Of a stretch of DNA of 64,000 nucleotides, positions 17,965-61,174 are shown piece after piece; position 1 is the first letter of the stretch, and each line of letters starts with the position of its first letter. Source of the DNA: Candidatus Bathyarchaeota archaeon (GTDB taxonomy: Archaea; Thermoproteota; Bathyarchaeia; Bathyarchaeales; Bathycorpusculaceae); NCBI GenBank assembly GCA_963775685.1, contig CAVZJV010000014.1:768001-832000 (forward strand), read 5' to 3'. Position numbers and translations under genes: made by a program. Below the pieces are notes generated by a model. That model was not told where the DNA came from. It saw only the letters and a program-made list of their open reading frames with translations, and did not search any database.

Positions 17965-18404
17965 ATTGGCATTATCCTTCTCGGATATTCAGTGCACAAT
18001 AAAGTCTGATATAAATGGCACGCTTCTGAAACGATCAAACTGGTGCAAAAATGTGGAGGTCGCTTTTGGAATGCATGATGATGAAGAGGAGAGGATTTTG
18101 ACCTTTGTTAAGAAGTGAATCCAAGTGTTTAACCCTTGTTTGGCATAGTAACAAGCACATGAGCTATCCGGTTATTTGTTTGTTGTTTGGGAAAGTTTTT
18201 TGGCTTGAGTTGGGTGAGTAAGGTTTTTCGAATTGGTGAAAAGGGGCTTTTTGGTTTAGGTGTTCTGGTTGAGGTTTTTTGCAGGGTTTGATTGTTGCAA
18301 CCGGTATGCAAAATTCAGTTGCAACAACAACATCAACAACAACTTTTATTTTATGTTGCAGTTGATTTGGATTGATTTTTTTAATTGAGGCTGTTGCCAC
18401 GGTT

Positions 18405-18641
18405 TTAAGGATCGATGGGTGGATCTTTCTTCATTTGGCTATGAGCAGCTTTGAGCGATAATTCGAAACTGCCTCGATCAACCACAAATTTTGTTTTTCC
18501 AGTTTGCAACTTTGAGAGGTTCTCACATATCGCCTTGGAACAAACCTTTCTCATGTCTTCACCGGTTAAAGTTCTCTGGATTATTTGGGTTTGAGTAGCA
18601 GCCTTTGGAACTGCTCTACCTATTTTTGGCGACAGTAGCAT
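18405..18641 (-). pseudogene. Probable fragment of an element-borne gene at the island edge
   Basis: 78-aa ORF with no recognisable family; overlaps a weak tRNA-3'-like string at about 18462-18484. Confidence 0.25.
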
Positions 18642-19304: not shown

Positions 19305-19348
19305 CGGTTAGTCCATTTGAAACTCTAAAAACTCAGAAAAAAGAACAG

Positions 19349-19537
19349 TCAGGGAATTTCGGTCATATTGTCACGCAGAGCTAACCAACGTTTAAACTCT
19401 AGTCCAGTACACTTGCCCTTCCCTAGCCAATTGTCACCATACTTCTTTCTCAACTTCTCACTGTATGACTCAAAAGTCTCTGCTTCACTTGCTTCTACAC
19501 TGTCTTTTTTTTTCACTAATTTATGACTCCAAATCAA
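19349..19537 (-). CDS. Small hypothetical protein
   Basis: 62-aa ORF preceded by a GGAGG ribosome-binding-like sequence. Confidence 0.4.
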   Translation of the reverse strand: MIWSHKLVKKKDSVEASEAETFESYSEKLRKKYGDNWLGKGKCTGLEFKRWLALRDNMTEIP

Positions 19538-19909
19538 GTCTTATACATGCCTCCAATTAAAGTTAAGTCTAACTGATTACATTGAAAATCAAAAGTCGAT
19601 AACTTTCAAGCAAAATAAGATAGCATAGGCTATGTTACATTCAGATTTTCCGATAACCCAAACAAAGATTATCTGCAATTAATATGTCTCAGCTAACATG
19701 CCATGCCAAAACTTGAAAAACTTGTTATTACTTGGCTTTGTCGGTGGATTTTCTCTTAAGAATTTTTTTAATCCATTGTGTTTCTGAGGAAAAAAACTTT
19801 TTCGTGCCGGTAATTCACCTATGACCTTAGAAATTAATGGAGCACACTTTGAGTCGGCGACTAACAATGGCAAAGAACGATGACACGTCATTCAGAATAA
19901 AGATATACG

Positions 19910-20000: not shown

Positions 20001-20056
20001 CCAAACAAAAGAATAGGCAACAACTTTTCCACCACCGTACTTTTTTGCTTATTTTC

Positions 20057-20117
20057 GTGCATGGGCGGGATTCGAACCTTCACCGCTGGATATATCATCC
20101 GAATATCCCTATTTTTT
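20057..20117 (-). repeat. Degenerate att site: tRNA-Leu 3' fragment plus conserved arm
   Basis: gtgcatgggcgggattcgaacc versus tRNA gtgcagggggtgggatttgaacc, followed by a degenerate arm and T-run. Confidence 0.7.
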
Positions 20118-20128
20118 CAAAGTAATCT

Positions 20129-20944
20129 CTAATTTTCTTTGTTAGATTTTCCTGAGGTAGAGTTTGAATTTCTTCCTCGGGACTTCCAAAGGGCTTTTGA
20201 TTGCGTGAACCAGAGTGTTTCAAAGTAATCCTGGACTATCCCGACGAGTGAGGGATTGTTCGACCACAACATAGAAGATCCCGCGAAATCTCCAGTTGGT
20301 GAAGTTACAATATTAACCTCTCTTTTATCATAAATTACTATCATAGCTGAAGGGATAGACGGGATATACCTGATGTTACAAGACGAGGTCTTGCAGACAT
20401 CCTCCAAAACTTTTGGCTGAGGCGTTTTTTGGTCAAATTCATCCAAAACGAATCGAACCTTTACTCCTCTATTTAATCCTTCAAAAATATCTCCACTTAC
20501 AGCAAACATCATTTGAAGAAATCTCTTGTGCGAAGTGACGCAATCTATGAAGTTTTGAGTAGCCTTAATGGTTTGTTTCCCCTTCTGGAGGCATGCTCTT
20601 CCTTTAGGAATCAAAACGAACTGCGTTTCATTAACGGATACTCCGTTTTTTTTCGCCTCGAACATATGGATTAAGCTTTGTGTTTGTATCTGCAATTCAC
20701 GGCTCTTCTCGAATCTAGCTTCCATCATGACATTGAGGGCTTCTTCCAAAGGGATAGATCGATACAAAATGGGGTTGGTTATAGATTTTTCAACAAAGCC
20801 CCTTTCTTCCAGCTCAGTTAAAATTCGGTAAATGTCTTGTCGGGCTACTTTGGATTCTTTTGAGATTACTTTTGCATTTGAGATTCCTAATTGACACAGC
20901 GCACTGTAAGTTCTGGCTTGGGTGACTGTAAACCCTAAGTCCAT
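20129..20944 (-). CDS. TrmB-family transcriptional regulator
   Basis: LGFTVTQARTY..SKVARQDIYRILTELEERGFV HTH; C-terminal MIVIYDKREV...LWSNNPSLVGIVQDYFETLW. Confidence 0.88.
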   Translation of the reverse strand: MDLGFTVTQARTYSALCQLGISNAKVISKESKVARQDIYRILTELEERGFVEKSITNPILYRSIPLEEALNVMMEARFEKSRELQIQTQSLIHMFEAKKNGVSVNETQFVLIPKGRACLQKGKQTIKATQNFIDCVTSHKRFLQMMFAVSGDIFEGLNRGVKVRFVLDEFDQKTPQPKVLEDVCKTSSCNIRYIPSIPSAMIVIYDKREVNIVTSPTGDFAGSSMLWSNNPSLVGIVQDYFETLWFTQSKALWKSRGRNSNSTSGKSNKEN

Positions 20945-21129
20945 TAGTACTATGGTTAATTCGTTTTTGACCCGGAATGTTGACGCCGTTGGAGGTCACA
21001 TTAGAATTTAATGTGTAATCTGCAGATAAATTTTTTGTTTTGTCAGTCGAGGTGCTTCCGACTGAGGCTTATTAGCTTTGCAATATAAACAAGCGATTGC
21101 GAAAATAAAAAATAGGAGAAGAAAAATAC

Positions 21130-23772
21130 ATGAAAATTCTAAAAAATAAGACTGCGGCCATAGCAATTGCTTTGCTCTTGATGTTTTCGATGTCGACTTC
21201 AACTACGCTATTACCAACCGCTACAGCGCATACACCCCCGTTTGTTTATCCGACATACGCGTTTATCAGTGTTCAACCAACCCCCGTTGGTATAGGTCAA
21301 CAAGTGTCTGTTAACTTTTGGATTGATAAGGCAGTGCTGACAGCCAATGGCGTTTATGGTGACAGATGGCAAAATTTCATGGTGAACGTTACTAAACCAG
21401 ATGACACCACTGAAAAGTTGGGGCCATTCACATCCGATGCAGCAGGAGGAGGACACACTTATTACACGCCCAGCACCCTCGGCAACTACACTTTCGTCTT
21501 CAGCTTTCCAGGACAAACATTATTAGGCGCCAATCCAGGCCCATCAGGCACATCTAATCCTAACAACATTGGCGATTATTTCGAACCCAGCACAAGTGCA
21601 CCATATATATTGTTTGTACAACAAGAGCCATCGCCACTTTTGCCAACAAACCCGCTCCCAACAAACTATTGGACACGCCCCATATTTGACAACAACTTGG
21701 CGTGGTACCCGATCGCCGGAAACTGGCTTGGCGGCGGCGCCGGAGGAAATAGTGGATGTGTTTACAATTCTACATCAAACTACGCTCCATACAGCACAGT
21801 CCCAACTACTGCCCACATAATGTGGACAAAACCATATGCCCCCGGAGGACTCATCGGGGGAGAATTTGGCGGCAACCAAGTGAACAGCAACTTCTATGCA
21901 ACCTCCCAATATGAACAAAAATTCGCTGGAGTTATCATCAACGGAGTATTGTACCGGACTTTAGAACCAGGGTCCACTAACAACTACATGGGCTGGGAAG
22001 CAACAGATCTGCGAACTGGAAAAACAATATGGTATCAAAATCAGTCTGCTACCACATGGCTAAGGATGGGTCAAATATTTGATTATGTTTCAATCAACCA
22101 ATTCGGAGGTCTCGCATACTTATGGGCCAATCTACCAACAGTAGCTCCCAACACAGGCAATACTTATGGCATGTACGACGCAATGACGGGAGGATGGATA
22201 TTGAACATAGTTAATGGCACCGCGCCGACGTGGGCGCAGGGACCCAACGGAGAGGTGTTAGGATACTATATCAACTCGACCTCAAAAACGCTGAACATGT
22301 GGAACTCAACCCAAGCCATCTTAAGAGGACCAACTGGAAGGGGGGACACGAATAGTCAGACATGGAGACCTAGTGCAGGAGCGTCTATTCCATGGTCATA
22401 CGGAGTGCAATGGACAGTGCCGATGGTCACGACGATAAAATTAGCCAATGGAACCACGGTAGACATCAATGAACAATATGCCCAAGATTCGGGAGATACT
22501 GATTTTCCTCTAGCCATAACTAAAGTCGCCGACATAATACTCGTAGATAATAGCTTGGCAGGGGGCAGGTTTGACGAGCCAGGTTACATAATTCAAGAAG
22601 CTTACAGCCCAATCGACGGGCATCTGCTGTGGGGCCCGTTAAACCAAACGATGACGCCGTTTGTTAGGACATCGATAGCTGCTATCGGAGATGGAGTTTA
22701 CACTCTTTTCATTTATGCAACGCAGTCATTTTATGGCTACAGCACAGCTACAGGAAAGCAGATCTGGGGACCCGTATCAATAGCAGTCGAAGATAATCCA
22801 TGGGGATACTATATTACCCACGCGGTAATCGGCGCTAACAACCAAATGTACGTGGATACATTCGGAGGGAACGTATGGGCTCTTGACATCACAAACGGAG
22901 CAATCATATGGCATAACAGCACTAATGCAGTCTCAAGTAGAGGAGTCGCAGGAGCGAATACTCCTTACGGTGTGTGGACTATCGCGAACGCTCCGGTCTT
23001 AACCAACGGAGCGTTTGTCACTATGGGAGGCCACTTATACAGCCCACCACTATATAATGGAGGCTCGATGTGTGTCTGGAACACGACTAACGGAAACCTA
23101 TTATGGGAGATCCTGGATTTCGCCACTTCAAACGGTGGTGAAGCCACTGTTGGCGACGGTTACATGGTGGTGACAAATGGCTATGACAATCAGTTGTACT
23201 GCTATGGCAAAGGACCAAGCCAAACAACTGTTATCGCACCTAACGTTGGCGTGACAACCTCAACACCAATAACGATAAGAGGAACAGTTACAGACATCGC
23301 TTCAGGCTCACAACAAGACGCAATGATAGCAAACTTCCCCAACGGTCTACCAGCTGTATCTGACGCAAGCATGACACCATTCATGGAAGCAGTTTATGAA
23401 CAGCAGCCAATGCCACATAACATAACCGGAGTCCCAGTAACAATATCTGTTACAGATTCTAATGGCAACTACAGAGATATCGGCACCACTACAAGCAATG
23501 CATATGGCACTTATAGTCTTAATTGGACACCAGACATTCCAGGCAACTACGAAGTCACTGCAACCTTTGCAGGCACAGAATCTTATTATCCATCCTCAGC
23601 AGCAACAGCCTTCTATGCTAGCGAGCCAGCAGCAACAACTGCGCCAATTGCTACCCCTGTATCAAACTCTGCAACAACGAGCGATCTTATGATAGGTATA
23701 GCTGCAATCATTGTTGTAATAGTCATAATTGGCATTGTATTGGTATTGCTGACGCTTAGAAAACGACCATAA
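21130..23772 (+). CDS. Secreted PQQ-like beta-propeller surface protein (paralog 1), C-terminal TM + RKRP
   Basis: Signal peptide, AHTPP..PTYAF, ATDLRTGKTIW-type propeller repeats, NGYDNQLYCYGKGP, Ig-like C-domain, TM tail. Confidence 0.85.
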   Translation: MKILKNKTAAIAIALLLMFSMSTSTTLLPTATAHTPPFVYPTYAFISVQPTPVGIGQQVSVNFWIDKAVLTANGVYGDRWQNFMVNVTKPDDTTEKLGPFTSDAAGGGHTYYTPSTLGNYTFVFSFPGQTLLGANPGPSGTSNPNNIGDYFEPSTSAPYILFVQQEPSPLLPTNPLPTNYWTRPIFDNNLAWYPIAGNWLGGGAGGNSGCVYNSTSNYAPYSTVPTTAHIMWTKPYAPGGLIGGEFGGNQVNSNFYATSQYEQKFAGVIINGVLYRTLEPGSTNNYMGWEATDLRTGKTIWYQNQSATTWLRMGQIFDYVSINQFGGLAYLWANLPTVAPNTGNTYGMYDAMTGGWILNIVNGTAPTWAQGPNGEVLGYYINSTSKTLNMWNSTQAILRGPTGRGDTNSQTWRPSAGASIPWSYGVQWTVPMVTTIKLANGTTVDINEQYAQDSGDTDFPLAITKVADIILVDNSLAGGRFDEPGYIIQEAYSPIDGHLLWGPLNQTMTPFVRTSIAAIGDGVYTLFIYATQSFYGYSTATGKQIWGPVSIAVEDNPWGYYITHAVIGANNQMYVDTFGGNVWALDITNGAIIWHNSTNAVSSRGVAGANTPYGVWTIANAPVLTNGAFVTMGGHLYSPPLYNGGSMCVWNTTNGNLLWEILDFATSNGGEATVGDGYMVVTNGYDNQLYCYGKGPSQTTVIAPNVGVTTSTPITIRGTVTDIASGSQQDAMIANFPNGLPAVSDASMTPFMEAVYEQQPMPHNITGVPVTISVTDSNGNYRDIGTTTSNAYGTYSLNWTPDIPGNYEVTATFAGTESYYPSSAATAFYASEPAATTAPIATPVSNSATTSDLMIGIAAIIVVIVIIGIVLVLLTLRKRP

Positions 23773-24110
23773 AAAAGCCAAACAAACAAAAACTATCTTC
23801 CCCTTTTTTAGTCCAAAAAATGCATTGGAGAAAAAAGCGCGCTGATTAGGCTTTGGATAAATTTAACTGTTGAAGCTGCAATCAAAATAGGTTTATGCAT
23901 TTTTCCTCTTCTCTCCTATTTCGGTTCTAGAGCCTCAGCAAACCCTAACCTTTGAACGCTTAAGAAATATGCATTTCTGATTAACAACCAGACTCACAAG
24001 ACTCTGCCCTGCAATGTACATGCATCGACTTTGCTCAAATTTTTCTGGAAAATTTTCGGACGCACTCGTGCGCTCGAGGTTGGTCTTTGAACGGATTTTA
24101 ACATTTCTGC

Positions 24111-24294
24111 TCATGCGGAATTGTTCTGAACGGATTTTTTGGTTGTCGCTATGTGTTCGCCTTGGACGACTTCCAACTGCCATTCCAAAGTGTCGCCCGG
24201 CTGGAGCCCCAAGAAGACGACTACTCCTTCAGGAACTGTCGCTCTAAACTTTAGAGTTTGGGTGCGCTATCGATGTTTTTGATTTTAGGCTCAT
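24111..24294 (-). pseudogene. AbrB/MazE/SpoVT-type DNA-binding protein, frameshifted
   Basis: MSLKSKTSIAHPNSK / RATVPEGVVVFLGLQPGDTLEW in two frames. Confidence 0.6.
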
Positions 24295-24399
24295 GCTTAA
24301 ATCATTGTTTCATTATTGATAGTTTTTAAAAAATGCAGAAAACGCCCCGCTATTTTTGTTATCCTTAATTAAGCTCAGTCAAACTCCGTTTGGTTTTTC

Positions 24400-25395
24400 T
24401 TAAAAGGTTGAAATATATTGATGAGGGCCAGGCCAAACAGGTGGAATCCTTCTCAATGTTCCTTCCATTTTTTTGATATGGGGTATTTTGAGAATTTCGT
24501 CATTTATTCTGATGATATCCTTACAATCTTTTACCAGAGCGACTGCTGATAAATCAAAATTGCCGCTAATTTTTACAATATATGAAACACCCGGTATTTT
24601 TGACAATTTGTCGGTAATTCTATTGACTTCCGATTGGTCAGCCAATGCCAAACTTATTTCTAGGATATTCTGAAAACCTACCTCTAGAGGATTAAATTGA
24701 ATTACAGCTTTAATATAATTGCCCATCTTAAGCTTTTCATATCTTCTTGAAACCGTCGCTGTTGATACACCTATCTGTTGACCCAATCTGTTGAATGTTA
24801 AGCGCCCATTTAACATAAGTGCATCAATAATTTTCTGATCAACCGCATCAAGATTATAAGTTGGTGCTTTTGTTGGAACTGTTACATCGCTAATGTCACA
24901 ATCTGGGTCAGAAAAAATGTTTTCAGGTATATTTCTACAATCAGTCCAAATATAGGTTTTGAAATCATTAATCTGATTTTGTCTATTTATAGATTGTTTG
25001 ACATTTTCAAGATCCCTTAAATTCTTTAAAAGCACTATAGCTGCCACGTTGTAAATGGAGTTATAATATTTGAACGCTCCTCCATTGAGGAATAGAATTT
25101 TTTGCAGCCTACTGCAAACATCTTCCACATTCTGGGACTCGACATTCATCATTATCATGGCAACAGCATCAAAGCCTAATTTGGGAACATTAATTTCTAT
25201 TGTGGAACCGACAATAATGTCTGACCTTTTCAATTCAATGAAATGTTTCCAAATGACTTTATCGGAGGTTTGACAATTTTTTGCGATGTCAGTAAAGTTT
25301 GTCCTCCCATCTCTTAAAAGCGCTTTAAGTATTTTGATGTCAATTTGTTCGAGGTCTCGCATAGCTGTAATTTTATTCTTAGCTAAATAAATCAT
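24400..25395 (-). CDS. Tandem-duplicated Lrp/AsnC-family regulator
   Basis: Two HTH+RAM units (IDIKILKALLRDGR; DAVDQKIIDALMLNGR..GVSTATVSRR). Confidence 0.88.
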   Translation of the reverse strand: MIYLAKNKITAMRDLEQIDIKILKALLRDGRTNFTDIAKNCQTSDKVIWKHFIELKRSDIIVGSTIEINVPKLGFDAVAMIMMNVESQNVEDVCSRLQKILFLNGGAFKYYNSIYNVAAIVLLKNLRDLENVKQSINRQNQINDFKTYIWTDCRNIPENIFSDPDCDISDVTVPTKAPTYNLDAVDQKIIDALMLNGRLTFNRLGQQIGVSTATVSRRYEKLKMGNYIKAVIQFNPLEVGFQNILEISLALADQSEVNRITDKLSKIPGVSYIVKISGNFDLSAVALVKDCKDIIRINDEILKIPHIKKMEGTLRRIPPVWPGPHQYISTF

Positions 25396-25762
25396 CTGCT
25401 TTAATATACTTCTTCAAATGTAGAAAGCCCAGTAAATAAACGATAAATTTTGGGTTTCCTTTATAAAATTTTTAAAAATACAATCCGCTTTTTAATACCT
25501 TGGATAAATTTAAAAACGAATTACCAATATAAAATTATACTTTTTACCTCTTATTTTAAACGTTCAATCTCGCATATAGGATTATTATTTAGAGCTGGAT
25601 CAGCTCTAATCTGAAAAATAATCGCTATGAAAAAGTAGATTGTTAGATTTAATTTCATAATTTATCCTTATTATGGCAAAGCTTATAAGCGTTCTTCATA
25701 AGCGTACCGAGAGAGAAAGTGCTTTGGCGCGATCTCTAAAAATTAAAGGAAGAAAAGAACAA

Positions 25763-28447
25763 ATGCAAAATCTTAAAGGTAAAACCTTAGCTATTTTGAT
25801 CGCATCAATCTTAACAGTTTCAATGGGATCTACAACTGTTCTATTGCCAATTGCTAACGCTCACACACCGCCTTATCAAATTCCAACATATGCTTTCATC
25901 AATGTTGCACCTAATCCTGCAGGCTTAGGACAGTCAGTTAACATTGGATTCTGGCTTGGCCAACCCACCCCGACAGCAGGCACAATTTACGGTGACAGAT
26001 GGTCAGGCATGACATTAAAAGTCACAAAACCCGATGGTACCACAGAAACCCTAGGTCCATTTACTGCTGATGATACAGGCGGAACATACAGTAGCTACAC
26101 ACCAAACCAACTTGGCAACTACACTTTCCAAATGAGTTTTCCAGGACAAACATTAGAAGGCACTAACCCCCCTCCGAGAGGATATTCTCCTGCAGTACAA
26201 GAAGATATTGGCGACTACTATGAGCCAAGTACCAGTGAAATAGCAACGCTTGCAGTGCAACAAGAGCCGATACCACTTATTCCGCAGAATCCGCTTCCAA
26301 CAACCTACTGGACTCGCCCAGTACAATCTGGGAACAGCTTATGGTATCAAATTACTGGCAACTGGCTTGGACTAGGCTCTTTATTTAGCGCTAGCACTGG
26401 CATGTACAATGCAACTGGAAACTACAATCCATACACTACAGCGCCGACAACCGCCCACGTTCTATGGACAAAGCCTATAGCATTCGGAGGTTTAATCGGT
26501 GGAGAATTCGGCGGAACAGATACAAGCAATTACTATGCAACACGACAGTACGAAAGAATGTTCCAGCCAATAATCATGAACGGTATACTATACTACGAAG
26601 AATACCCCGAAAGTACTCAAAACCCAACGGGTTGGGCAGCAGTAAACTTAAAGACAGGACAAACACTGTGGAGAGAAGATTCTACCAACTATGGTGGTGG
26701 TTCTCCAGCGCAAACAGCTCTATTACCAAATGGTTTGGTTACAACTCTAAGATGCGGACAATTACTTGATTATATGACTCCCAATCAATACGGGGCCTTA
26801 GCATACTTGTGGAGCACCGGAACCCCTGATGGAATAGTTTCGACTGGAACGACTTGGAACATGTTTGATGCTATGACTGGACAATATGTACTAAGCATTG
26901 TTAACGGTACTTCGCTCTCGCCGCTTGTAGAAGATGACGGGGGAAACTTGATTGGTTACTACGTCAACTCAAGTACTGCTAATGCATATCATGCACCTAC
27001 CTTGAACATGTGGAATTCAACGCAATGCATTGTTGAAGGAACCAACGGAGCTGCGGCTTGGCAATGGAGACCGACACAAAACGCCCAAATTCCGTTTTCG
27101 CTAGGCATAATGTGGTCAATGCCCTTAACTACTAACATTTCAGGTGCTGCTTTGCCTTCGACGCTTTCACTTCCAGGCGGTGCCTACTCTGTTACAGCTG
27201 CAACTTTCAATAGTGGCGTCCTGTTTATGCATGCGTTAGGTTCCACTGGAGGTTCCAGCTACAATACTGGATTTGATATCCAAGCAGGCTACAGTGCGGA
27301 CACAGGGAAACAGTTATGGATAGTTAACAGAACAGAAACGCCTTACACAAGAGTTGATTTTTCACAAACTTCACATGGAGTCTATGTTGAAATCAACCAA
27401 GATACAGCGGCTTGCACTGGTTACAATATCAACACAGGCCAGGTACAGTGGGGTCCAATTACGCTTCCAGATCCTGACCCTTACAACAGCATTGGTAGCT
27501 ATTATGGCCAAGTTGCTGACGGTATGCTCTACTTAAGCAGTTTTGGTGGAAACATCTACGCTATGAACATAGAGACGGGTGCTATCATTTGGCAAACTGA
27601 CACAAACACGCTTACTGGTGAAGCGGGTTCTGACACTCCTTATGGAGTGTGGCCTCTTTGGCAGTTTGGGAACCCAGGAGCTATTGCTGATGGAATGTTA
27701 TTTCTCGGTGAAGGCCATGAATACAGTCCGCCTCTTTTCCGCGGAGCACAGCAACTTGCAATAAATCTTACTGATGGAACGCTTGTTTGGAGCATGACAG
27801 CTTTTGATGTTGACGGCGGTACAGCTATTGCTGATGGAGTAATGCTAGCAGAAAGTTCGTATGATAATCAGATATACGCTTGGGCCATGGGACCGAGCAA
27901 GACAACGGTTACCGCACCTAGTGTTGGCGTAACGACTGCTACACCAGTGACGATTAGGGGGACGGTAAATGATATTTCGGCCGGCACGCAGCAAGAAGCT
28001 GTTGCGGCCAACTTCCCGGGTGGTCTTCCTTGTGTTTCTGACGCAAGCATGACGCTGTGGATGGAATTCGTCTATCAGCAGCAGCTTTGTCCGTCGAACG
28101 TGACTGGTGTTCCAGTAACACTTAGCGTTGTTGACAGTAACGGCAACTACAGACAAATCGGTACAACTACAAGCGATGCTAGCGGTATGTTCACTTACAC
28201 GTGGACACCTGATATTCAAGGTGACTATACTGTTATCGCAAACTTTGCAGGTACACAATCATATTATCCATCTTCTGCTGAAACATCATTCTATGCCAGT
28301 GATGCAGTAACTCCAGTACCAACTGTTGCGCCTCAATCAAACCTAGCAACGACAACAGATCTACTGATGTACATAGCGGTTGCAGCTATTGCAATAATTA
28401 TTGCAATCGCAATTGCTACAGTGCTATTACTCAGGAAAAGACCATAA
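25763..28447 (+). CDS. Secreted PQQ-like beta-propeller surface protein (paralog 2)
   Basis: Same architecture as paralog 1; start set at ATG 25763 after AAGGAAG; ends LLLRKRP. Confidence 0.85.
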   Translation: MQNLKGKTLAILIASILTVSMGSTTVLLPIANAHTPPYQIPTYAFINVAPNPAGLGQSVNIGFWLGQPTPTAGTIYGDRWSGMTLKVTKPDGTTETLGPFTADDTGGTYSSYTPNQLGNYTFQMSFPGQTLEGTNPPPRGYSPAVQEDIGDYYEPSTSEIATLAVQQEPIPLIPQNPLPTTYWTRPVQSGNSLWYQITGNWLGLGSLFSASTGMYNATGNYNPYTTAPTTAHVLWTKPIAFGGLIGGEFGGTDTSNYYATRQYERMFQPIIMNGILYYEEYPESTQNPTGWAAVNLKTGQTLWREDSTNYGGGSPAQTALLPNGLVTTLRCGQLLDYMTPNQYGALAYLWSTGTPDGIVSTGTTWNMFDAMTGQYVLSIVNGTSLSPLVEDDGGNLIGYYVNSSTANAYHAPTLNMWNSTQCIVEGTNGAAAWQWRPTQNAQIPFSLGIMWSMPLTTNISGAALPSTLSLPGGAYSVTAATFNSGVLFMHALGSTGGSSYNTGFDIQAGYSADTGKQLWIVNRTETPYTRVDFSQTSHGVYVEINQDTAACTGYNINTGQVQWGPITLPDPDPYNSIGSYYGQVADGMLYLSSFGGNIYAMNIETGAIIWQTDTNTLTGEAGSDTPYGVWPLWQFGNPGAIADGMLFLGEGHEYSPPLFRGAQQLAINLTDGTLVWSMTAFDVDGGTAIADGVMLAESSYDNQIYAWAMGPSKTTVTAPSVGVTTATPVTIRGTVNDISAGTQQEAVAANFPGGLPCVSDASMTLWMEFVYQQQLCPSNVTGVPVTLSVVDSNGNYRQIGTTTSDASGMFTYTWTPDIQGDYTVIANFAGTQSYYPSSAETSFYASDAVTPVPTVAPQSNLATTTDLLMYIAVAAIAIIIAIAIATVLLLRKRP

Positions 28448-28469
28448 ACACGATAAACCAAACTATCTT

Positions 28470-28520
28470 TCCCCTTTTTTAGTTTAAATTCAAGCGATCA
28501 AACTGGGGCTGAGTGGGCTT
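28470..28520 (+). repeat. Left arm of 51-bp perfect inverted repeat (includes the paralog terminator)
   Basis: tccccttttttagtttaaattcaagcgatcaaactggggctgagtgggctt is the exact reverse complement of 29366-29416. Confidence 0.95.
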
Positions 28521-28631
28521 TGGTTAAAATTCATGATACTAGCCATGTCGTGACTTAGCAATTGCATTGTTATTTCCAGAGCTTCAGCAACCATTTTTCT
28601 TCACGGCTGCTTTTCTAGTTCAGAAATCATT

Positions 28632-28697
28632 ATGGTGGATCGAGGGATTTGAACCCTTCATCCAGTGGAGATGTCACCCGCATATCCCCTTTTTTAT
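28632..28697 (-). repeat. att-like site: tRNA-3'-like fragment plus conserved arm
   Basis: tggtggatcgagggatttgaaccc followed by ccagtggagatgtcacccgcatatcccctttttt, near-identical to the arm at 32680-32713. Confidence 0.75.
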
Positions 28698-28800
28698 TTA
28701 ACATAGAAGGCCCTTAAAAAATTTCTGTTTTGTAAAGTGTTCGTTTAATTAATGGTTTAATTTATTTAGGGCTCAATTTGTAACTGTTTAGCGTTTTTAG

Positions 28801-28859
28801 AGAGGGATTAAATTGAACCCACCTCTCAGTGGAGACCTCGATCGCTTATCCCATTTTTT
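28801..28859 (-). repeat. Degenerate att-like site
   Basis: gggattaaattgaacccac..cagtggagacctcgatcgcttatcccattttt. Confidence 0.55.
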
Positions 28860-29230
28860 ATTTACCTATCTTAGCGGTTTTTCGATGCCTACTCAAAAGC
28901 TAATATTGATAGAAAGACAACTATAGTCACTATAACGCTGATAGGTAATATGTAATCAGTCAACTCCCAAAGCTGCGAATTTCTATCTGTTGGGAGTGAA
29001 GAGAATACGCTTGGTGAATTGGTTGCTGTCTGATTAGGCGTTGATGTTGGCGGATTTGTTGTTGCAGTTGGGTAGATGAAATTTCTCCAATATAGAAAAC
29101 AATTGGTTCTGATGAATCGGTAAAAGAAATACCTCCTGACTTATCGTGTATGTTTGCGGTAATCACGATGGAGTGAATACAATATGATAAACTAGCAGTC
29201 GTGTGGTTATTGCTAAAAACCGTCTCTGAG
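28858..29230 (-). pseudogene. 3' remnant of a secreted protein with S/T/P linker, TM and RHRK tail
   Basis: SEPIVFYIG / PTATTNPPTSTPNQTATNSP..YILPISVIVTIVVFLSILA / RHRKTAKIGK* across frameshifts. Confidence 0.65.
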
Positions 29231-29365
29231 ATAACATCAAAGAAATATGTCTTTAAGAAGTGCTAAATATGGTCGGTTATTGCTGGGGTTTGGACTCAGT
29301 TACTCTTGGAGAAAAGAAAAATGAAGAAACCAAACCTTGAATGCACACACAGCAAAGGTTATCAG

Positions 29366-29416
29366 AAGCCCACTCAGCCCCAGTTTGATCGCTTGAATTT
29401 AAACTAAAAAAGGGGA
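29366..29416 (-). repeat. Right arm of 51-bp perfect inverted repeat
   Basis: Reverse complement of 28470-28520. Confidence 0.95.
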
Positions 29417-29444
29417 GAAGGATTTTTCCATTTTTGTTTTTACC

Positions 29445-32216
29445 TTATGGTCGCTTTTTGAGCAGCAACAATGCGAGGACTAAGCCGACAACAATTATTG
29501 CAATGATTACGCCGATTATGCCTGGCACAAAGTATAGGTCAGCCATTGATAGAGCTGCGGTTGGCTGCGGTGTTGCTGTTGCAACTGGTTGATCAACTGA
29601 GAAAGCGGTTTCAGCAGATGATGGCCAGTAGCCATTGGTACCTGCGAAGGTTGCGATTACTCTGTATGCGCCGGAAATGTCTGGTGTCCATTGTAAACTG
29701 TAAAAGCCCTTTGCGTCTGTTGTTGTTGTGTCGATTGTTCGGTAATTGCTGTTTGCGTCTATGACATTGATTGTAACTTCAACGCCTGTGAAGTTGGTTG
29801 GAAGAGGTTTCTGTTGGTAAACATAGCCCATCCAGTCACTCATGCTCGCGTCTGAAGATACTGGTACACCGCTTGCAAAGCGGGCTGATTGCTCGTCTTG
29901 TGTGGTTCCTGTGGAAACATCCATCACTGTTCCGCTAATGGTTACGCCTTGACCTGAAGCTGCTGCGAGGTTTGGAGCTGAAACTGTTGTTGTGCTTGCG
30001 CCTCTGCCGACACAGTAGATTTGGTTGTCGTAACCGTTTAAGGTCACAGAGAAACCGTCTGCGATGTAGCCTGTATCTAAAGCGGCAAATGGTCCACCAG
30101 CCTCGGAGGTTACTTCGTTTAGTGTCCAGATTAGTTGTCCGGTTGTGGCATTGATAGCCTGCTGTTGTGCATTCCTGTAAATTGGGATTTGAAGAGTGTG
30201 TTCAGTGGTTGTTGTGTAGATTATTCCGTTCCCGATAGCGTACATTGTCATTGGGTATGGACCTGGAACTTCGAAGCCGCTGCTTGTACTGTTGCCTGCG
30301 CCGCCGTTACCATATGTCCAAAGTAAGTTGCCAGTTTGCAAATCAAAGCATGACATTACTCCGCCGAATCCATCGTAGTAAAGATTTCCATAAGCATATG
30401 CTGCTCCGTTTTCGTTCCCGCCGCTGTTGTATCCACTGTTGTAGTACATGAGTTGCGCTTGTGATTGATCGCCGACTGGGCCCCATAGTTTCTGTCCTGT
30501 CGCCATGCTGTATCCTACGAATTGCATAGATTCCTTATAGAATTCAACGAATACACCGTTTGTTGGAATGCTGTTGGCTGGTCCACTGTAACTCACTGTG
30601 ATGTTGCCGGTTGGTGGTTGGAGAGTGTTGCTCCATAGTTTAGCACCGATTGCACCTTTAGAGGCATTGAGGTTGATTCCAAAGTATATGTAGGGTGTTT
30701 GTGAGGTGCCAGACGGTGTAGAGCCGCTTCTGGCTACCATCATATCGCCTGCCCATGCTACGACTATAGTAGGAGCTGGTGTAATAGTGCTAAGCCAGTC
30801 TAATGAAACGTTCCAGTCATAACTGTATCGTAAACTGTTAGCGTTTACTACGTTTCCGTAGACTACGTAATTTTTAGTGGCGGGTTGTGTAGGGTCGTTT
30901 CCTGCGACTGCGCCTAGTGCTGGTTCAGGAACGCTTGCATACATTGCTTGAGTTGCGGTAATACTGGCTCCGGTAGTGGTGGAGTAGTTGTAAAGTGTTG
31001 GAGAGTTAATGACTGAGTTTGGTGACCATGGATTGGCAACGTTTTCCCAAAGACGTGACGAATTCCATTGGCTCAGATACATTTGTGGATTTGTAGCGGT
31101 GCCAAGGTTAGTTAGAATGAGTCTTAGCTGTTCTCCTTTTGGACCTACAACTTGGGTACCAGTAGGAACGCCAGTTACATTGAAAAGCGGACATCCAGTG
31201 TATGCATCAAATGCTTGCGCAAAGTTACTTGTGAAAAGTATTGGTGGATATGTTCCGTGTTGGTTGGGGTTATCGACATCATAGATGTAACCGAACGATA
31301 GCTGAGGGATTGCAGTGCTGCTCCAAATGATTTTTCCTGTTCGCAAATCTTGGCAAACAGTTGCTCCACTGGCGGCGCCTGTGAAGGTTACTGGTTTAGT
31401 ATAGTACATGTATCCATTCATTATTATCGTATTGGTGAATCTACCACTATATGCAGAGCCTTCAAAGTTTGTGGCGCCTGGCTGAGGTATGGTTCCTCCT
31501 ACGATTCCGCCAAAGTCAAGTGGATATGTCCACATAACATGGCTGGTTTGAGGTCCTATGGCGTTTCCTGGTGGAACGTTACAACCTGCTGCACCAGTCC
31601 CATAACCTGCTGAACCAGTGCCTAGCCAGTTTGAGGATATTGTGTACCAATAAATGTTTTCAGCGTATATTGGGCGTGCCCAGTATTCTATTGGAAGCGG
31701 TACAAGATCAGTAGTTGGAATTTGTTCCTCCTGCACGGTTAGTGTTGTCGATGAGGTACTTGGCAAATATGTATCGTTAATGTATAACGAGGTTGGTGAA
31801 TGTGAATAGTCATTAACGGCTTGTCCTGGATAAGTAAAGTTGAAGCTGTAAGTACCTACTTGTGTAGGGGTGAAGGTATAGACCTGGTTTGAGGTAGGAT
31901 CCGTGATATCCGTAAAAGTCCTTGTTTCGGTAGAACCATCAGGTGCGGTTATAGTGAGCTTATAATTATGGAATCTATAGTCGTTTATTTTCGATGCATC
32001 GGCATAAGTGTTAGATAACCACATGTATATAGTCGCTGTTTGACCGACACCTATAGGGTCAGGTACCGCTTGTACGAAAGCAAATGTTGAATTCTGCCAC
32101 TCTGGTGCGTGTGCACTTGTACTTGAAATAGTCACCATTGGAATAGTCATAGATAACGCTAGTAATATTGCAAATATAGAAATTGACGTTTTAGATTTGC
32201 TTTTTAGTAAGTTCAT
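29445..32216 (-). CDS. Secreted PQQ-like beta-propeller surface protein (paralog 3)
   Basis: AHAPEW, CQDLRTGKIIW, NGYDNQIYCVGRG, MADLYFVP-TM-KKRP. Confidence 0.85.
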   Translation of the reverse strand: MNLLKSKSKTSISIFAILLALSMTIPMVTISSTSAHAPEWQNSTFAFVQAVPDPIGVGQTATIYMWLSNTYADASKINDYRFHNYKLTITAPDGSTETRTFTDITDPTSNQVYTFTPTQVGTYSFNFTYPGQAVNDYSHSPTSLYINDTYLPSTSSTTLTVQEEQIPTTDLVPLPIEYWARPIYAENIYWYTISSNWLGTGSAGYGTGAAGCNVPPGNAIGPQTSHVMWTYPLDFGGIVGGTIPQPGATNFEGSAYSGRFTNTIIMNGYMYYTKPVTFTGAASGATVCQDLRTGKIIWSSTAIPQLSFGYIYDVDNPNQHGTYPPILFTSNFAQAFDAYTGCPLFNVTGVPTGTQVVGPKGEQLRLILTNLGTATNPQMYLSQWNSSRLWENVANPWSPNSVINSPTLYNYSTTTGASITATQAMYASVPEPALGAVAGNDPTQPATKNYVVYGNVVNANSLRYSYDWNVSLDWLSTITPAPTIVVAWAGDMMVARSGSTPSGTSQTPYIYFGINLNASKGAIGAKLWSNTLQPPTGNITVSYSGPANSIPTNGVFVEFYKESMQFVGYSMATGQKLWGPVGDQSQAQLMYYNSGYNSGGNENGAAYAYGNLYYDGFGGVMSCFDLQTGNLLWTYGNGGAGNSTSSGFEVPGPYPMTMYAIGNGIIYTTTTEHTLQIPIYRNAQQQAINATTGQLIWTLNEVTSEAGGPFAALDTGYIADGFSVTLNGYDNQIYCVGRGASTTTVSAPNLAAASGQGVTISGTVMDVSTGTTQDEQSARFASGVPVSSDASMSDWMGYVYQQKPLPTNFTGVEVTINVIDANSNYRTIDTTTTDAKGFYSLQWTPDISGAYRVIATFAGTNGYWPSSAETAFSVDQPVATATPQPTAALSMADLYFVPGIIGVIIAIIVVGLVLALLLLKKRP

Positions 32217-32401
32217 TTTTTTTACTCCTTTTATGATTTTTAAGTCAGAAAAGTAGTGCTAATAAGCCTTTCTTATCTATCGTGAGCTCAAAAAATTCTT
32301 GTGTGTTAATCTTCAGCAGGTAAAATGCCACTTGTCTTTTTGCTAATTTATTGTGATACTGTTCAAGATTGGGGAAGACCTGCGAAAGACAAGATCACCG
32401 T

Positions 32402-32607
32402 CTCCACGTAAAACAAGTCTTAGGTCACAAACGAATAGAAAACACACTAAAGTACATACAACTTGCTAAAGAATATTCAAAGGCGAGATTGAATACGTTT
32501 CAAGAGTAGCCAAATCTGAAGGAGAAGCCTGCCTACTAATGGACGCAGGTTTTGACTTTGTCTGCGATTTCAACGGCAACAAACTTTTCCGTAAATAGAA
32601 ACACTAA
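32402..32607 (+). pseudogene. Tyrosine integrase C-terminal stub
   Basis: LHVKQVLGHKRIENTLKYIQL / FKGEIEYVSRVAKSEGEACLLMDAGFDFVCDFNGNKLFRK*; homologous to the end of 55176-56120. Confidence 0.9.
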
Positions 32608-32641
32608 AGAAATCACCCTTCGTACACCCTCGGTATGTTTT

Positions 32642-32676
32642 ACCATAGTGGTGCAGGGGGCGGGATTTGAACCCAC
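32642..32676 (-). repeat. att direct repeat (3' end of tRNA-Leu)
   Basis: accatagtggtgcagggggcgggatttgaacccac; 34/35 identical to 56179-56213. Confidence 0.95.
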
Positions 32677-32745
32677 ATACCGGTGGAGATGTCACCCGCA
32701 TAACCCTTTTTTTCTCCATTTTGATTTTTGTTTAAAGCTACTACC

Positions 32746-54835: not shown

Positions 54836-55175
54836 ATGGCTGAGCTTACATCGAAACCTTCTCCAGACGTATTTGGCACTAAAGTCGGTTCCAATTCTTG
54901 TAAGTCAGAGTCTGCCCAAGACTCTGCCGGCACCAGCCCCCTATGCCCACAATGCAGCTCAAAAAGAGTTTGGCGAGCGGGTTTACGTTTTGACGAGTTG
55001 GCGAAAGATTCAACGTTGGTTATGTCGAGAATGTGGATTGAGATTTTCAGATCCAAACGATCTTTAAGGTCCAAAAAGAGCGGTTGAAGCTGTTGAATCG
55101 GTTGAAACGAAGTCATTAAAAACCTCTGTCGGCATAGTAACTAGTAGCCAAATATGCGTCACGGAGACGAAAATC
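54836..55175 (+). pseudogene. Disrupted N-terminal Zn-ribbon extension of the integrase
   Basis: MAELTS..CPQCSSKRVWRAG / IQRWLCRECGLRFSDP*; after the stop the frame continues without interruption into the integrase. Confidence 0.65.
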
Positions 55176-56120
55176 TTGGTAGCAGAACAACAAACAACTA
55201 AAGTTCTGCGAAGAAACGAAACTGGCGATTTCAAACAAAAAATCCTCGAATATGCGCTCTGGCTAAAAAACAGTGGGAAAAGCGAAGCAACCATATGCGG
55301 CAGAGTTAAACTGCTAAAAAGATTGATCAAAAGGGGCGCCAATCTCTACGATCCAGAGTCACTTAAGAAAACTATCGCAGAGCAGAAATGGGGCAACGGC
55401 ATGAAAAACAACGCCGTCGACGCCTATTCATCCTTCCTAAAAATGGCTGGAGGAGAATGGGAACCCCCACTATACAAAGTTGTCCGCAAGATACCTTTCA
55501 TACCTAAAGAAACAGAAATCGATCAATTAATCGCAGGCTCCAGCAAACGTATGGCAATATTCCTACAACTACTCAAAGAAACAGGCGCACGATGCGGAGA
55601 AATCTGGCAACTCAAATGGCTCGATATCGATTTAGAAAGTAAAGTCATAAACATTACACCTGAAAAGAACAGCACCCCAAGAGTAACCCACCTAAGCAAC
55701 AAGGCTATAGACATGCTCCAAACGCTGCCCAAAAACTACGGCGACAGAGTCTTCTCATTTCAACACATGCGAGTCGACAATTACGCTGTAAATTTCCAAC
55801 GTCAACGCCGAAAAGTAGCCAACAAAATAGGCAACCAAAGAATAATGCAAATCCACTTTCACACTCTAAGATATTGGAAAGGAACAATGCTCTACCACTC
55901 ACACAAAGACATGTACTATGTCATGCAACGATTAGGCCACAAAAACATCAAAAACACACTACTTTACGTCCAACTGGAAGAAGCTCTCTTTCAAGGCGAA
56001 TGCGAGTATATTTCTAAGGTTGCGAAAACAGCAAAGGAAATATGTGCTTTAATCGAGTCAGGATTCGAATACGTTACCGAATTTCACGGCGCTAAAATCT
56101 TTAAGAAAAGGAAACTTTAA
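55176..56120 (+). CDS. Tyrosine recombinase/integrase
   Basis: ETGARCGE (R), HFHTLR (HxxR), RLGH, NTLLY (Y); ends 59 bp before the att repeat at the tRNA. Confidence 0.93.
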   Translation: MVAEQQTTKVLRRNETGDFKQKILEYALWLKNSGKSEATICGRVKLLKRLIKRGANLYDPESLKKTIAEQKWGNGMKNNAVDAYSSFLKMAGGEWEPPLYKVVRKIPFIPKETEIDQLIAGSSKRMAIFLQLLKETGARCGEIWQLKWLDIDLESKVINITPEKNSTPRVTHLSNKAIDMLQTLPKNYGDRVFSFQHMRVDNYAVNFQRQRRKVANKIGNQRIMQIHFHTLRYWKGTMLYHSHKDMYYVMQRLGHKNIKNTLLYVQLEEALFQGECEYISKVAKTAKEICALIESGFEYVTEFHGAKIFKKRKL

Positions 56121-56185
56121 CATGAAAATTAGCCAAAAGTTTAAGCAACATCGCCAGGCGGGACCCCCTTACTATTTGACCATAG

Positions 56186-56273
56186 TGGTGCAGGGGGTGG
56201 GATTTGAACCCACGAACCTCTGAAGGATAGGCTCCTGAAGCCTACGCCTTTGACCATGCTCGGCGACCCCTGC
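56186..56273 (-). tRNA. tRNA-Leu: tRNA-Leu(CAG) with encoded CCA
   Basis: GCAGGGG acceptor, anticodon arm TAGGC-TTCAGGA-GCCTA, long variable arm, GGTTCAAATCC T-arm, CCCCTGCACCA. Confidence 0.97.
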
Positions 56274-61052: not shown

Positions 61053-61174
61053 TGTCTGCCGGTCAAAGGGCACGGGTTCCACCTGATCCCATTCCGAACT
61101 CAGAAGTTAAACCGTGTTCCGTTTCCAGCTGTAGTGTGGTCTTAGGCCACGTGAACCTGGGAAAGCTGGCAACA
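61053..61174 (+). rRNA. rrf: 5S rRNA (stand-alone)
   Basis: CCTGATCCCATTCCGAACTCAGAAGTTAA loop C region; terminal helix TGCCGG/CTGGCA; TATA (gtatataa) at 61021. Confidence 0.93.

Follow-up and report, generated by a model that had tools for sequence, protein, structure and literature searches.

In this study we describe a short conserved DNA motif found in a stretch of 64,000 nucleotides (nt), hereafter the window, from the genome of Candidatus Bathyarchaeota archaeon (assembly GCA_963775685.1, contig CAVZJV010000014.1, positions 768,001-832,000 of the forward strand; the genome and contig are coded G000 and C14). Four copies of this motif, which we term the arm, are fused to 3' fragments of transfer RNA (tRNA) genes, and are best read as attR-type junctions of stacked insertions at the gene for tRNA-Leu(CAG). 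The feature is real and conserved across the lineage, and we consider it likely that the motif represents the element-side arm of the attachment site in a Bathyarchaeia-wide family of insertions that target tRNA genes. The comparisons below establish the anatomy of these junctions, the linkage of the arm to the inserted side, a switch at the T-loop, one-directional arrays beside tRNA genes and a wide distribution.

Junction anatomy, point of exchange and distribution

Read on the minus strand, each copy consists of an A-run, GGGG, about 4 nt, GC, GGGTGAYATCTCCAC, a spacer of 9-11 nt, and a tRNA T-arm with the 3' acceptor end. In copy 1 the A-run is followed by GGG, TTATGC, GGGTGACATCTCCAC (32697-32683) and CGGTAT, then by the T-arm GTGGG-TTCAAAT-CCCGC and by CCCCTGC-A-CCA, which ends at 32649. 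All four copies that an earlier note on this DNA had located are present (Table 1); the number holds for the window and not for the genome, which has about 16. They share one orientation, lie downstream of tRNA-Leu(CAG), and each is followed by a T-run. The stretches 28644-28695, 28808-28859 (69%) and 32662-32713 (85%) constitute a repeat family (D5). The 15-mer GGGTGACATCTCCAC occurs exactly twice in the window (28665-28679 and 32683-32697), a frequency that taken alone is within chance (0.81 matches are expected, and two or more arose in 18 of 100 shuffles).

The arm is absent from the real tRNA gene, as the earlier note had stated: the likeness between copy 1 and tRNA-Leu(CAG) begins at the T-stem and extends to about 14 nt past the CCA (32638-32688 against 56175-56225, 86% over 51 nt, repeat family D13; 34 of 38 positions identical over the tRNA 3' end and its flank), and the sequences upstream of the T-stem are unrelated. 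The different tRNA-like end recognized earlier at 28633 is likewise genuine, the acceptor end ..TCGATCCACCA of copy 2 matching none of the 49 tRNAs that ARAGORN predicts in this genome. Two details need revision. The dyad GGTG-7nt-CACC is present in the 32.7 kilobase (kb) copy but is reduced to GTG/CAC across the family and folds no better than shuffled sequences; and the arm alone is an incomplete description of the conserved unit, to which the T-loop half GGTTCAAAT also belongs.

A comparison of 124 distinct arm copies indicates which side of the junction the arm belongs to. Loci L113 and L139 have the left flank, arm, spacer and T-loop in common and diverge 1-2 nt past TTCAAAT; L131 and L150 show the same pattern of sharing and diverge at the same distance past TTCAAAT, while L113 and L150 have the right half in common with different left sides. 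As the same left flanks and arms thus stand beside different right halves, the arm belongs to the inserted DNA and the switch occurs at the T-loop. The alignments show that the arm moves with the inserted DNA while the tRNA-side half changes, and they place the exchange in, or at the 3' edge of, the GGTTCAAATC(C) T-loop. The 5' half of the T-stem is often unable to pair with the 3' half (e.g. in L010, L013 and L022), which is the expected appearance of a hybrid junction. The arm is fused to the 3' ends of Leu, Ala, Arg and Pro tRNAs, and one arm can be paired with all of these because the switch sits in a stretch which nearly all tRNAs share. The earlier suggestion of a family-wide attP arm with several tRNA targets is supported both by this occurrence of one arm beside Leu, Ala, Arg and Pro ends in many genomes and by the retention of the element-side flank with a varying tRNA half (L113/L139, L131/L150). 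A variant left side is seen at three loci (L017, at G000:C14:73.2 kb, L021 and L031), where the A-run/GGGG part gives way to another conserved left flank (about 45 nt, GGTAYATCA ... AATTRATAGTWAAGTCTTC) with a second GGTATATCA-like box.

In its own genome a 17-mer with up to two mismatches occurs at 8 places, with a T-loop 8-11 nt downstream in 6 of them, and one further place of the 8 has the A-run with a decayed core; the motif is therefore not scattered away from tRNA fragments, which the earlier note had named as an outcome that would speak against it. A profile trained on 32 copies (nhmmer) recovers 16 arm copies in this genome at an expectation value (E) of at most 0.05. A tRNA gene on the same strand lies within 30 kb upstream of 10 of the 16 copies (random placement: mean 3.3, maximum 10 in 2000 trials), a figure that overstates the independence of the association since the copies are clustered; after clustering there are five arrays near tRNA genes against four or five orphan loci. 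The arrays are situated at Leu(CAG), Ala(TGC), Leu(TAG), Arg(ACG) and a Leu(TAA)-like gene missed by ARAGORN, and an arm copy 16 kb from tRNA-Arg(ACG) bears the 3' end of that tRNA with 1 mismatch. The Leu(TAA)-like gene (G000:C14:2295255-2295339, plus strand) has an integrase remnant beside it, and was possibly missed on account of an intron or a damaged 5' part.

Beyond this genome, the composite pattern of the 15-mer, N6-14 and GGTTCRAAT is found exactly at 34 places in 15 of 61 related genomes, while the reversed pattern used as control is found at none. A sequence-only model at E<=0.001 has matches in 51 of the 61, the weakest of which may be T-arms alone. In species-representative genomes the exact pattern is present in at least 117 stretches; our locus analyses use 80 listed 8-kb loci, of which 75 are titled Bathyarchaeota or Bathyarchaeia. 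The titles of the remaining five (Methanoperedens, Heimdallarchaeota, an uncultured archaeon, Gemmatimonadales and Cytophagales) may reflect mis-binning or transfer. A matching tRNA gene on the same strand is present in 8 of the 80 listed loci, and in 5 of 18 upstream stretches of 5-20 kb from other genomes, where it is Ala(TGC) or Leu(TAG).

The copies form arrays with a single direction. With every locus oriented by its seed copy, 161 arm matches point the same way and 2 are opposite, and the 29 loci with multiple copies among the 80 listed are all co-oriented. Successive copies are separated by 58 distinct intervals, the shortest of 25 and the longest of 17354 nt (median about 1.5 kb); five are below 110 nt. 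Among the 24 intervals of 250-1500 nt, a single open reading frame (ORF) fills more than half in 17, running along the direction of the sites in 11 and against it in 6. One array, for example, consists of tRNA-Leu(TAG), a 0.62 kb acetyltransferase-like unit, a site, a 0.32 kb unit and a further site. Some units recur: a 1 kb unit between sites is common to L137 and L141 (85% identity) with unrelated neighbours, and a unit X, which follows tRNA-Ala and precedes a site in L046, is found in L095 in the order X, decayed site, Y, site, the unit Y lying between two sites in L051. The sequences directly beside shared units differ between genomes. From their arrangement these recurring units look like the products of cassette shuffling; short units could also be deletion remnants of larger elements. 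Clustering of the ORFs from 30 loci recovered no gene family common to more than 4 of them. A different arrangement is seen in L210 (G005:C12, 19680-20000), where tandem tRNA-Leu copies, each following integrase sequence, are separated by a run of N; this looks like a stacked insertion without the arm.

Integrases, the second box and the island at tRNA-Leu(CAG)

The tRNA gene of the window faces a convergent tyrosine integrase gene that points at the tRNA 3' end, and this arrangement is repeated at six other tRNAs. Full-length members of the integrase family have 409-435 amino acids (aa) and contain, in order, a four-cysteine ribbon (CPxC ... RWxCRxCGxRFSDP), a linker of about 40 aa, an Xer-like core, and, past the catalytic tyrosine, a further 45 aa or so that are likewise conserved; one such member, of 429 aa, is encoded beside tRNA-Leu(TAG) at G000:C14:1513280-1514569. 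PF00589 is the sole Pfam domain above cut-off, the matches of the ribbon to InsA, IS1595 and DUF7838 being all sub-threshold. A search of a protein collection recovered 3726 relatives at E<=1e-10, typically of about 425-435 aa, and the named ones are annotated as integrases or recombinases of Bathyarchaeota. In an AlphaFold2 model built with 31 sequences (mean predicted local distance difference test score, pLDDT, 75.6), confidence is fairly high for the ribbon (residues about 33-72) and for a helix (74-94) but drops below 50 over residues 92-130, so that the linker is of low confidence, and the C-terminus is predicted to form a beta-alpha-beta-beta unit. The core is closest to XerA in a Foldseek search (E 6.6e-13), followed by IntI4, Tn1549 Int and lambda Int, and XerA is also the top match by sequence (E 2.9e-12). 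The score against the XerA equivalog model is 82 bits, with a cut-off of 220, and those against the integron-integrase models are 49.4 bits with a cut-off of 265 (TIGR02249) and 28.8 with a cut-off of 435 (NF011946). Integrase remnants on the opposite strand come directly after the arm and core; this is seen in the window as well as in L120, L124, L130, L160 and L177.

A second box occurs on the integrase side. In Leu-, Ala- and Pro-type elements the stretch from the tRNA end to the integrase stop contains GGGGG (or CCCC), about 6 nt, and GGCGATG or GGGTGAT, and in the window this P'-side unit AAGGGGGTCCCGCCTGGCGATGT (56170-56148) repeats the pattern of the arm AAGGGGTTTTGCGGGTGATAT in direct orientation. 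Of 20 distinct cores next to an integrase, which are related sequences, 11 have GG[TC]GAT, at an offset of 33-35 in 10 of the 11; the box is found in none of 46 other tRNAs of the genome, and its reverse complement in 1 of the 20 cores. Most of the 9 cores lacking it come from Arg-, Cys- and Ser-type elements. The related box thus has the direct orientation and is restricted to the integrase-side flanks; an inverted arm copy downstream of the core was sought and rejected (best-match distance 7.07 against 7.05 in shuffles). The P' box together with the tethered zinc ribbon recalls the anatomy of arm-type sites, and from their sequences the arm and the P' box fit such a role as putative arm-type sites.

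In the window (Table 1) the order outward is the tRNA, a newer element (32714-56185), an arm with a displaced tRNA end, and the integrase end of an older element. This order matches the insertion of a newer element at a tRNA already holding an older one, and hence suggests stacked insertion. The position of the arm at one end of an island, with tRNA-Leu(CAG) and an integrase at the other, is again in line with the attP arm of the earlier note.

Table 1. Features of the island at tRNA-Leu(CAG), in window coordinates
Feature	Position	Strand	Details
tRNA-Leu(CAG), target gene and array anchor, attL side	56186..56273	-	ARAGORN; Rfam 54.6 bits
P'-side unit of newer insertion	56148..56170	-	AAGGGGGTCCCGCCTGGCGATGT between tRNA and integrase stop; GGCGAT box 56155-56150; direct repeat of arm pattern
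Tyrosine integrase ORF	55176..56120	+	314 aa, TTG start, Xer-like, family-specific C-terminal extension; PF00589 E 6.5e-21; best PDB match XerA
Broken N-terminal zinc-ribbon region of the integrase	54906..55175	+	two Cys pairs in different frames; TAA after ..SDPNDL
Copy 1, arm	32683..32713	-	A-run, GGG, TTATGC, 15-mer GGGTGACATCTCCAC at 32697-32683; P arm of 23.5 kb island 32714-56185
Copy 1, core	32649..32682	-	spacer, T-stem, T-loop TTCAAAT at 32671-32665, acceptor 3' strand to CACCA; displaced tRNA-Leu 3' part
P'-side unit of older insertion	32612..32630	-	AGGGTGTACGAAGGGTGAT; GGTGAT box at 32617-32612
Integrase C-terminal pseudogene, older insertion	32405..32595	+	stop and frameshift; just beyond copy 1; tblastn matches residues 248-267 and 271-311; repeat family D20
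Copy 3	28802..28859	-	degenerate arm, decayed T-arm; about 105 nt from copy 2; nhmmer E 0.0098
Copy 2	28633..28695	-	exact 15-mer at 28679-28665; plus-strand T-run 28690-28695; T-arm and foreign acceptor end ..TCGATCCACCA
Copy 4	20055..20117	-	degenerate arm, Leu-like 3' end ..CCCGCCCATGCAC; nhmmer E 8.7e-05; outermost junction recognized

The newest unit spans 23.5 kb. It encodes a MarC membrane protein, a substrate-binding protein, a HAMP protein, a histidine kinase, a hydrolase, a pirin, a DUF1508/MscL protein and one large surface protein (51173-53776); no viral or plasmid hallmark was detected among ten of its proteins that were scanned, and the cargo looks ordinary cellular. The stretches between the older junctions encode TrmB- and Lrp-type regulators, together with three paralogous surface proteins of about 900 aa. 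The four surface-protein paralogues (about 870-920 aa; 21130-23772 and 25673-28447 on the plus strand, 29445-32216 and 51173-53776 on the minus strand) share a PQQ-like beta-propeller and Ig-like domains, and their C-terminus is a membrane anchor with the final residues ..RKRP; each gene is followed by a CCCCTTTTTT stop signal, and these regions correspond to the repeat families D1, D3, D4, D6 and D7. Nine orthologous tRNA-Leu(CAG) loci lack an integrase or arm within 0.6-1.5 kb downstream of the tRNA. Synteny did not reveal the far border of the island: homology to the chloride-channel side ends at about window position 18023, and no tRNA adjoins the chloride-channel gene in 11 relatives.

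Several other features of the window deserve mention. tRNA-Leu(CAG) is its sole tRNA gene according to ARAGORN, and Rfam adds only a 5S ribosomal RNA gene (61055-61174, plus strand, 68.1 bits). A conserved non-coding module of about 200 nt (28448-28632), which fills the space from a surface-protein stop codon to the tRNA-like end of copy 2, recurs at G000:C14 near 658.4 kb, 73.0 kb and 2300.2 kb and at locus L015, and contains a GAGC-loop-GCTC hairpin-like stretch. A small ORF downstream of copy 2 (MVAEALE...) was rejected as a gene, its reading frame not being conserved; the likeness found there is that of the non-coding module and of the antisense strand of the convergent surface-protein gene. 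A short repeat of 50-80 nt at 18246-18406 has many copies in this genome and in many relatives (80-93% identity). A stretch of about 160-230 nt at 19348-19576 has about 27 listed matches across relatives of the genus (69-86% identity), mostly one per genome (two in G007 and G014) and with no synteny of neighbours; it overlaps the small ORFs 19349-19537 (minus strand) and 19368-19526 (plus strand) and may be a small gene or RNA.

Weighing the readings

The observations above can be assembled into a scheme for these insertions. The attP would be carried by a circular element or cassette, its arm consisting of AAAAAAGGGG, about 4 nt, GC and GGGTGAYATCTCCAC, followed by a spacer of 9-11 nt and a copy of the tRNA T-arm and 3' end; elements bearing an integrase would add the second box (GGGGG, about 6 nt, GGYGAT) and then the 3' end of the integrase gene. 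Strand exchange by a zinc-ribbon/Xer-like tyrosine integrase would take place inside the T-loop GGTTCAAATC(C) or at its 3' edge. The target tRNA would then be completed by the element's own 3' tRNA part, and the old 3' part would stay behind fused to the arm as attR, every new insertion at the tRNA shifting the earlier junctions outward. Under this scheme the copies at 32.7, 28.8, 28.7 and 20.1 kb would represent at least four events downstream of tRNA-Leu(CAG). The presence in the family of a tethered zinc ribbon and of a related P'-side box leads us to infer that the 15-mer is a predicted arm-type protein site, most likely for the tethered zinc ribbon or the C-terminal extension of the integrase. 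CCCC-T6/7 on the other strand may serve to end integrase transcription in the circular form, and the short units without an integrase were presumably moved in trans.

A number of observations weigh against this scheme. Several concern the bond between arm and integrase: an integrase homologue lies within 1.5 kb of the arm in 1 of 30 loci and within 8 kb in 11 of the 80 listed; in five other genomes no integrase was found at the place expected from the arm copies; and over the 61 genomes the counts of motif and integrase show a modest correlation (rho 0.39), their presence and absence being not significantly associated (30/4/20/7, p 0.19). Six genomes have 3-7 integrase matches with no motif match, and four have at least two motif matches with no integrase match at E<=1e-10. 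In G005, G007, G027 and G032 the closest integrases stand beside tRNAs, and no arm is present in the sequence covered on the element side of the integrase (about 0.5-18 kb, bounded by contig ends). In the window itself the ribbon is split between frames and interrupted by a TAA stop, so that the resident integrase is, judging from its reading frames, probably defective or truncated. Others concern the junctions. A viral collection yielded 0 arm matches, and no free attP was found on a demonstrably circular or viral record. No clean empty site was found, as the downstream flanks of tRNA-Leu(CAG) differ in all 9 relatives, none mapping to the far side of the island. The second left flank AATTRATAGTWAAGTCTTC abuts the 15-mer directly in 3 genomes, and a 151-nt patch of 95% identity between two loci of this genome begins exactly at the 15-mer, a boundary for which the scheme does not account. 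Core identity is, moreover, mixed inside single arrays, as shown by the foreign end of copy 2 (28633) and by the Leu(TAG) array, one core of which is Pro-like; plain serial insertion at one tRNA does not predict such mixtures.

A rival reading is a system of integron-like cassettes anchored at a tRNA, in which the arm and T-loop would be the single site of integrase-less circles, integrases acting in trans would capture, excise and reshuffle these circles at T-loops, and the tRNA would take the place of attI. The earlier note had likewise raised an attC-like cassette boundary. The arrangement agrees with it: the arrays are co-oriented, many of the 58 intervals are units of 0.3-1.5 kb with one ORF and no integrase, as in the Leu(TAG) array with its acetyltransferase-like and 0.32 kb units, and some cassettes are shared, namely the unit of L137 and L141 and the units X and Y in their three combinations (L046, L051 and L095). 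The mechanism does not agree. Ten folds (5 copies on both strands, against shuffles) gave z values of -1.00 to +0.89 and hence no hairpin, the integrase scores 49 bits on an integron-integrase model with a cut-off of 265, and the ORFs are not co-oriented (11 in the direction of the sites, 6 opposite). The flanks beside a shared unit differ and the short units could be deletion remnants, and neither a circular form nor a polymorphism of presence and absence was seen in one public sequencing run (0.07 of sampled words, short contigs). We regard this explanation as unlikely.

The remaining explanations fare worse. A transcription stop or insulator (on the plus strand GC, about 4 nt, CCCC and T6-7), protecting the element or tRNA from read-through and lying at tRNA fragments as a by-product, would account for the T-run after all four window copies, for the fact that CCCCTTTTTT also ends the nearby large surface-protein genes (family D7), and for the position of the run just 3' of the integrase gene in attP order. 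Archaeal termination requires only a T-run, and the need for such a run does not explain why 15 nt, placed 9-11 nt away from a T-loop, should stay invariant in different genera; moreover L017, L021 and L031 keep the 15-mer without the A-run/GGGG part. The simple terminator that the earlier note had offered as a counter-explanation is thus very improbable, a fixed 15-mer at a fixed distance from the T-loop being unnecessary for termination. Still less probable is a small structured RNA or half-tRNA (the 3' half of a split tRNA, or a tRNA-like RNA) whose transcription would begin in the AT-rich DNA preceding GGGG. The block does have a T-arm and CCA end, and some copies are preceded at about 24-31 nt by AT-rich, TATA-like stretches; but ARAGORN and Rfam are silent at the copies, the sole match at relaxed thresholds being a transfer-messenger RNA at 11 bits (cut-off 47), the consensus fold from RNAalifold has an energy of -1.6 kcal/mol with 1 of 7 pairs compensatory, and the T-stem halves are often unpaired. 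That one leader is joined to 3' ends of several identities is impossible for the leader of a split tRNA. An end of a transposon or miniature element (IS200/IS605-like, or a miniature inverted-repeat transposable element) with a preference for T-loops could explain the subterminal imperfect dyad, the TCAA inside the T-loop and the many copies per genome. The dyad, however, does not fold, neither a partner end nor a recurrent transposase occurs among the neighbours of 30 loci, and duplication of the tRNA 3' part with an intact tRNA is the signature of an integrase acting on attP and attB; hence this is the explanation to which we give least credence.

Relation to known systems and implications

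From their sequences the junctions have defining features of tRNA islands made by integrases, and they lack two defining features of attC sites, the hairpin and IntI. Such islands are bounded by a regenerated tRNA and a displaced 3' fragment, as set out in the accessible part of the description of the Islander database (PMC4383910). The loci analyzed here resemble them in the intact tRNA and displaced 3' fragment as direct repeats, the integrase at the tRNA end, the tandem stacking, and the crossover at a tRNA loop. They differ in that one arm of 15-17 nt serves at least four tRNA identities across an archaeal class and in that many units are below 1.5 kb and have no integrase. With regard to the crossover, a study by Williams in 2002 reportedly assigned its sublocation to anticodon or T-loops. 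In streptococci, cis-mobilizable elements (CIMEs) lack an integrase, have att sites on both sides and build up next to integrative elements that use one att site. The short units resemble these in being att-flanked, integrase-less and stacked by an integrase-bearing element, but they are far smaller, archaeal, and have heterogeneous cores within one array.

As in the attP of lambda, a conserved site lies outside the core homologous to attB, on the element side only, and a related box is a candidate site on the other arm. The predicted structure likewise has, as in heterobivalent integrases of the lambda type, an extra small domain on a flexible tether; here, though, the extra domain is a predicted four-Cys zinc ribbon with a C-terminal extension, without the N-domain of lambda, and partners such as Xis or the integration host factor are not known for the Bathyarchaeia system. 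The relation to the classical XerA- and pNOB8-kind (non-suicidal) archaeal integrases is seen in the Xer-like core-binding and catalytic domains and in the attP outside the gene beside its 3' end, whereas about 115 additional N-terminal residues with the zinc ribbon and about 45 additional C-terminal residues set the present family apart. According to the accessible sections of a review of archaeal tyrosine recombinases (PMC8371274), the canonical model has four identical att sites, lambdoid phages being the notable exception; the review also has a section on 'unescorted' archaeal integrases, and the terms 'arm-type', 'arm-binding', 'T-loop' and 'Bathyarchaeota' do not appear in those sections. 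Integron arrays and clusters of attC sites lacking integron-integrases (CALINs), including the archaeal ones (PMC9668308, in its accessible part), are similar to our arrays in their co-oriented short sites and short, often single-gene units, some of which recur. They differ in that the sites here are double-stranded, tRNA-derived and without an attC hairpin, the integrase is not IntI and the arrays are anchored at tRNAs. The accessible part of the archaeal-integron paper (PMC9668308) does not contain the word 'tRNA'. A paper on viruses of Bathyarchaeia mentions integrases and no attachment sites. In the articles covered by the literature searches, no description of the arm was found.

We also offer a tentative and rather doubtful proposal for gene capture in Bathyarchaeia: single-gene circles with an arm and T-loop might be inserted, excised and reshuffled at the universal T-loop of tRNA genes by zinc-ribbon integrases acting in trans, which would hold the 15-mer through the tethered domain and tolerate any tRNA sequence beyond it. 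If true, Archaea would have here their first integrase system that depends on an arm, a counterpart of the integron that is double-stranded and anchored at tRNAs; and if the integrase-less short units are mobile, they would provide a route to cassette arrays other than the integron. The element-side arm, the second box and the tethered zinc ribbon together suggest an asymmetric attP similar to that of lambda, unlike the canonical identical att sites. Bathyarchaeia are abundant and uncultured, and their mobile DNA has barely been described. A junction signature of 15-17 nt in over a hundred species offers a simple means of delimiting acquired DNA in them; it could flag tRNA hot spots and help to date successive insertions. 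The arm junctions thereby make visible the stacking and apparent reshuffling of acquired genes in Bathyarchaeia.

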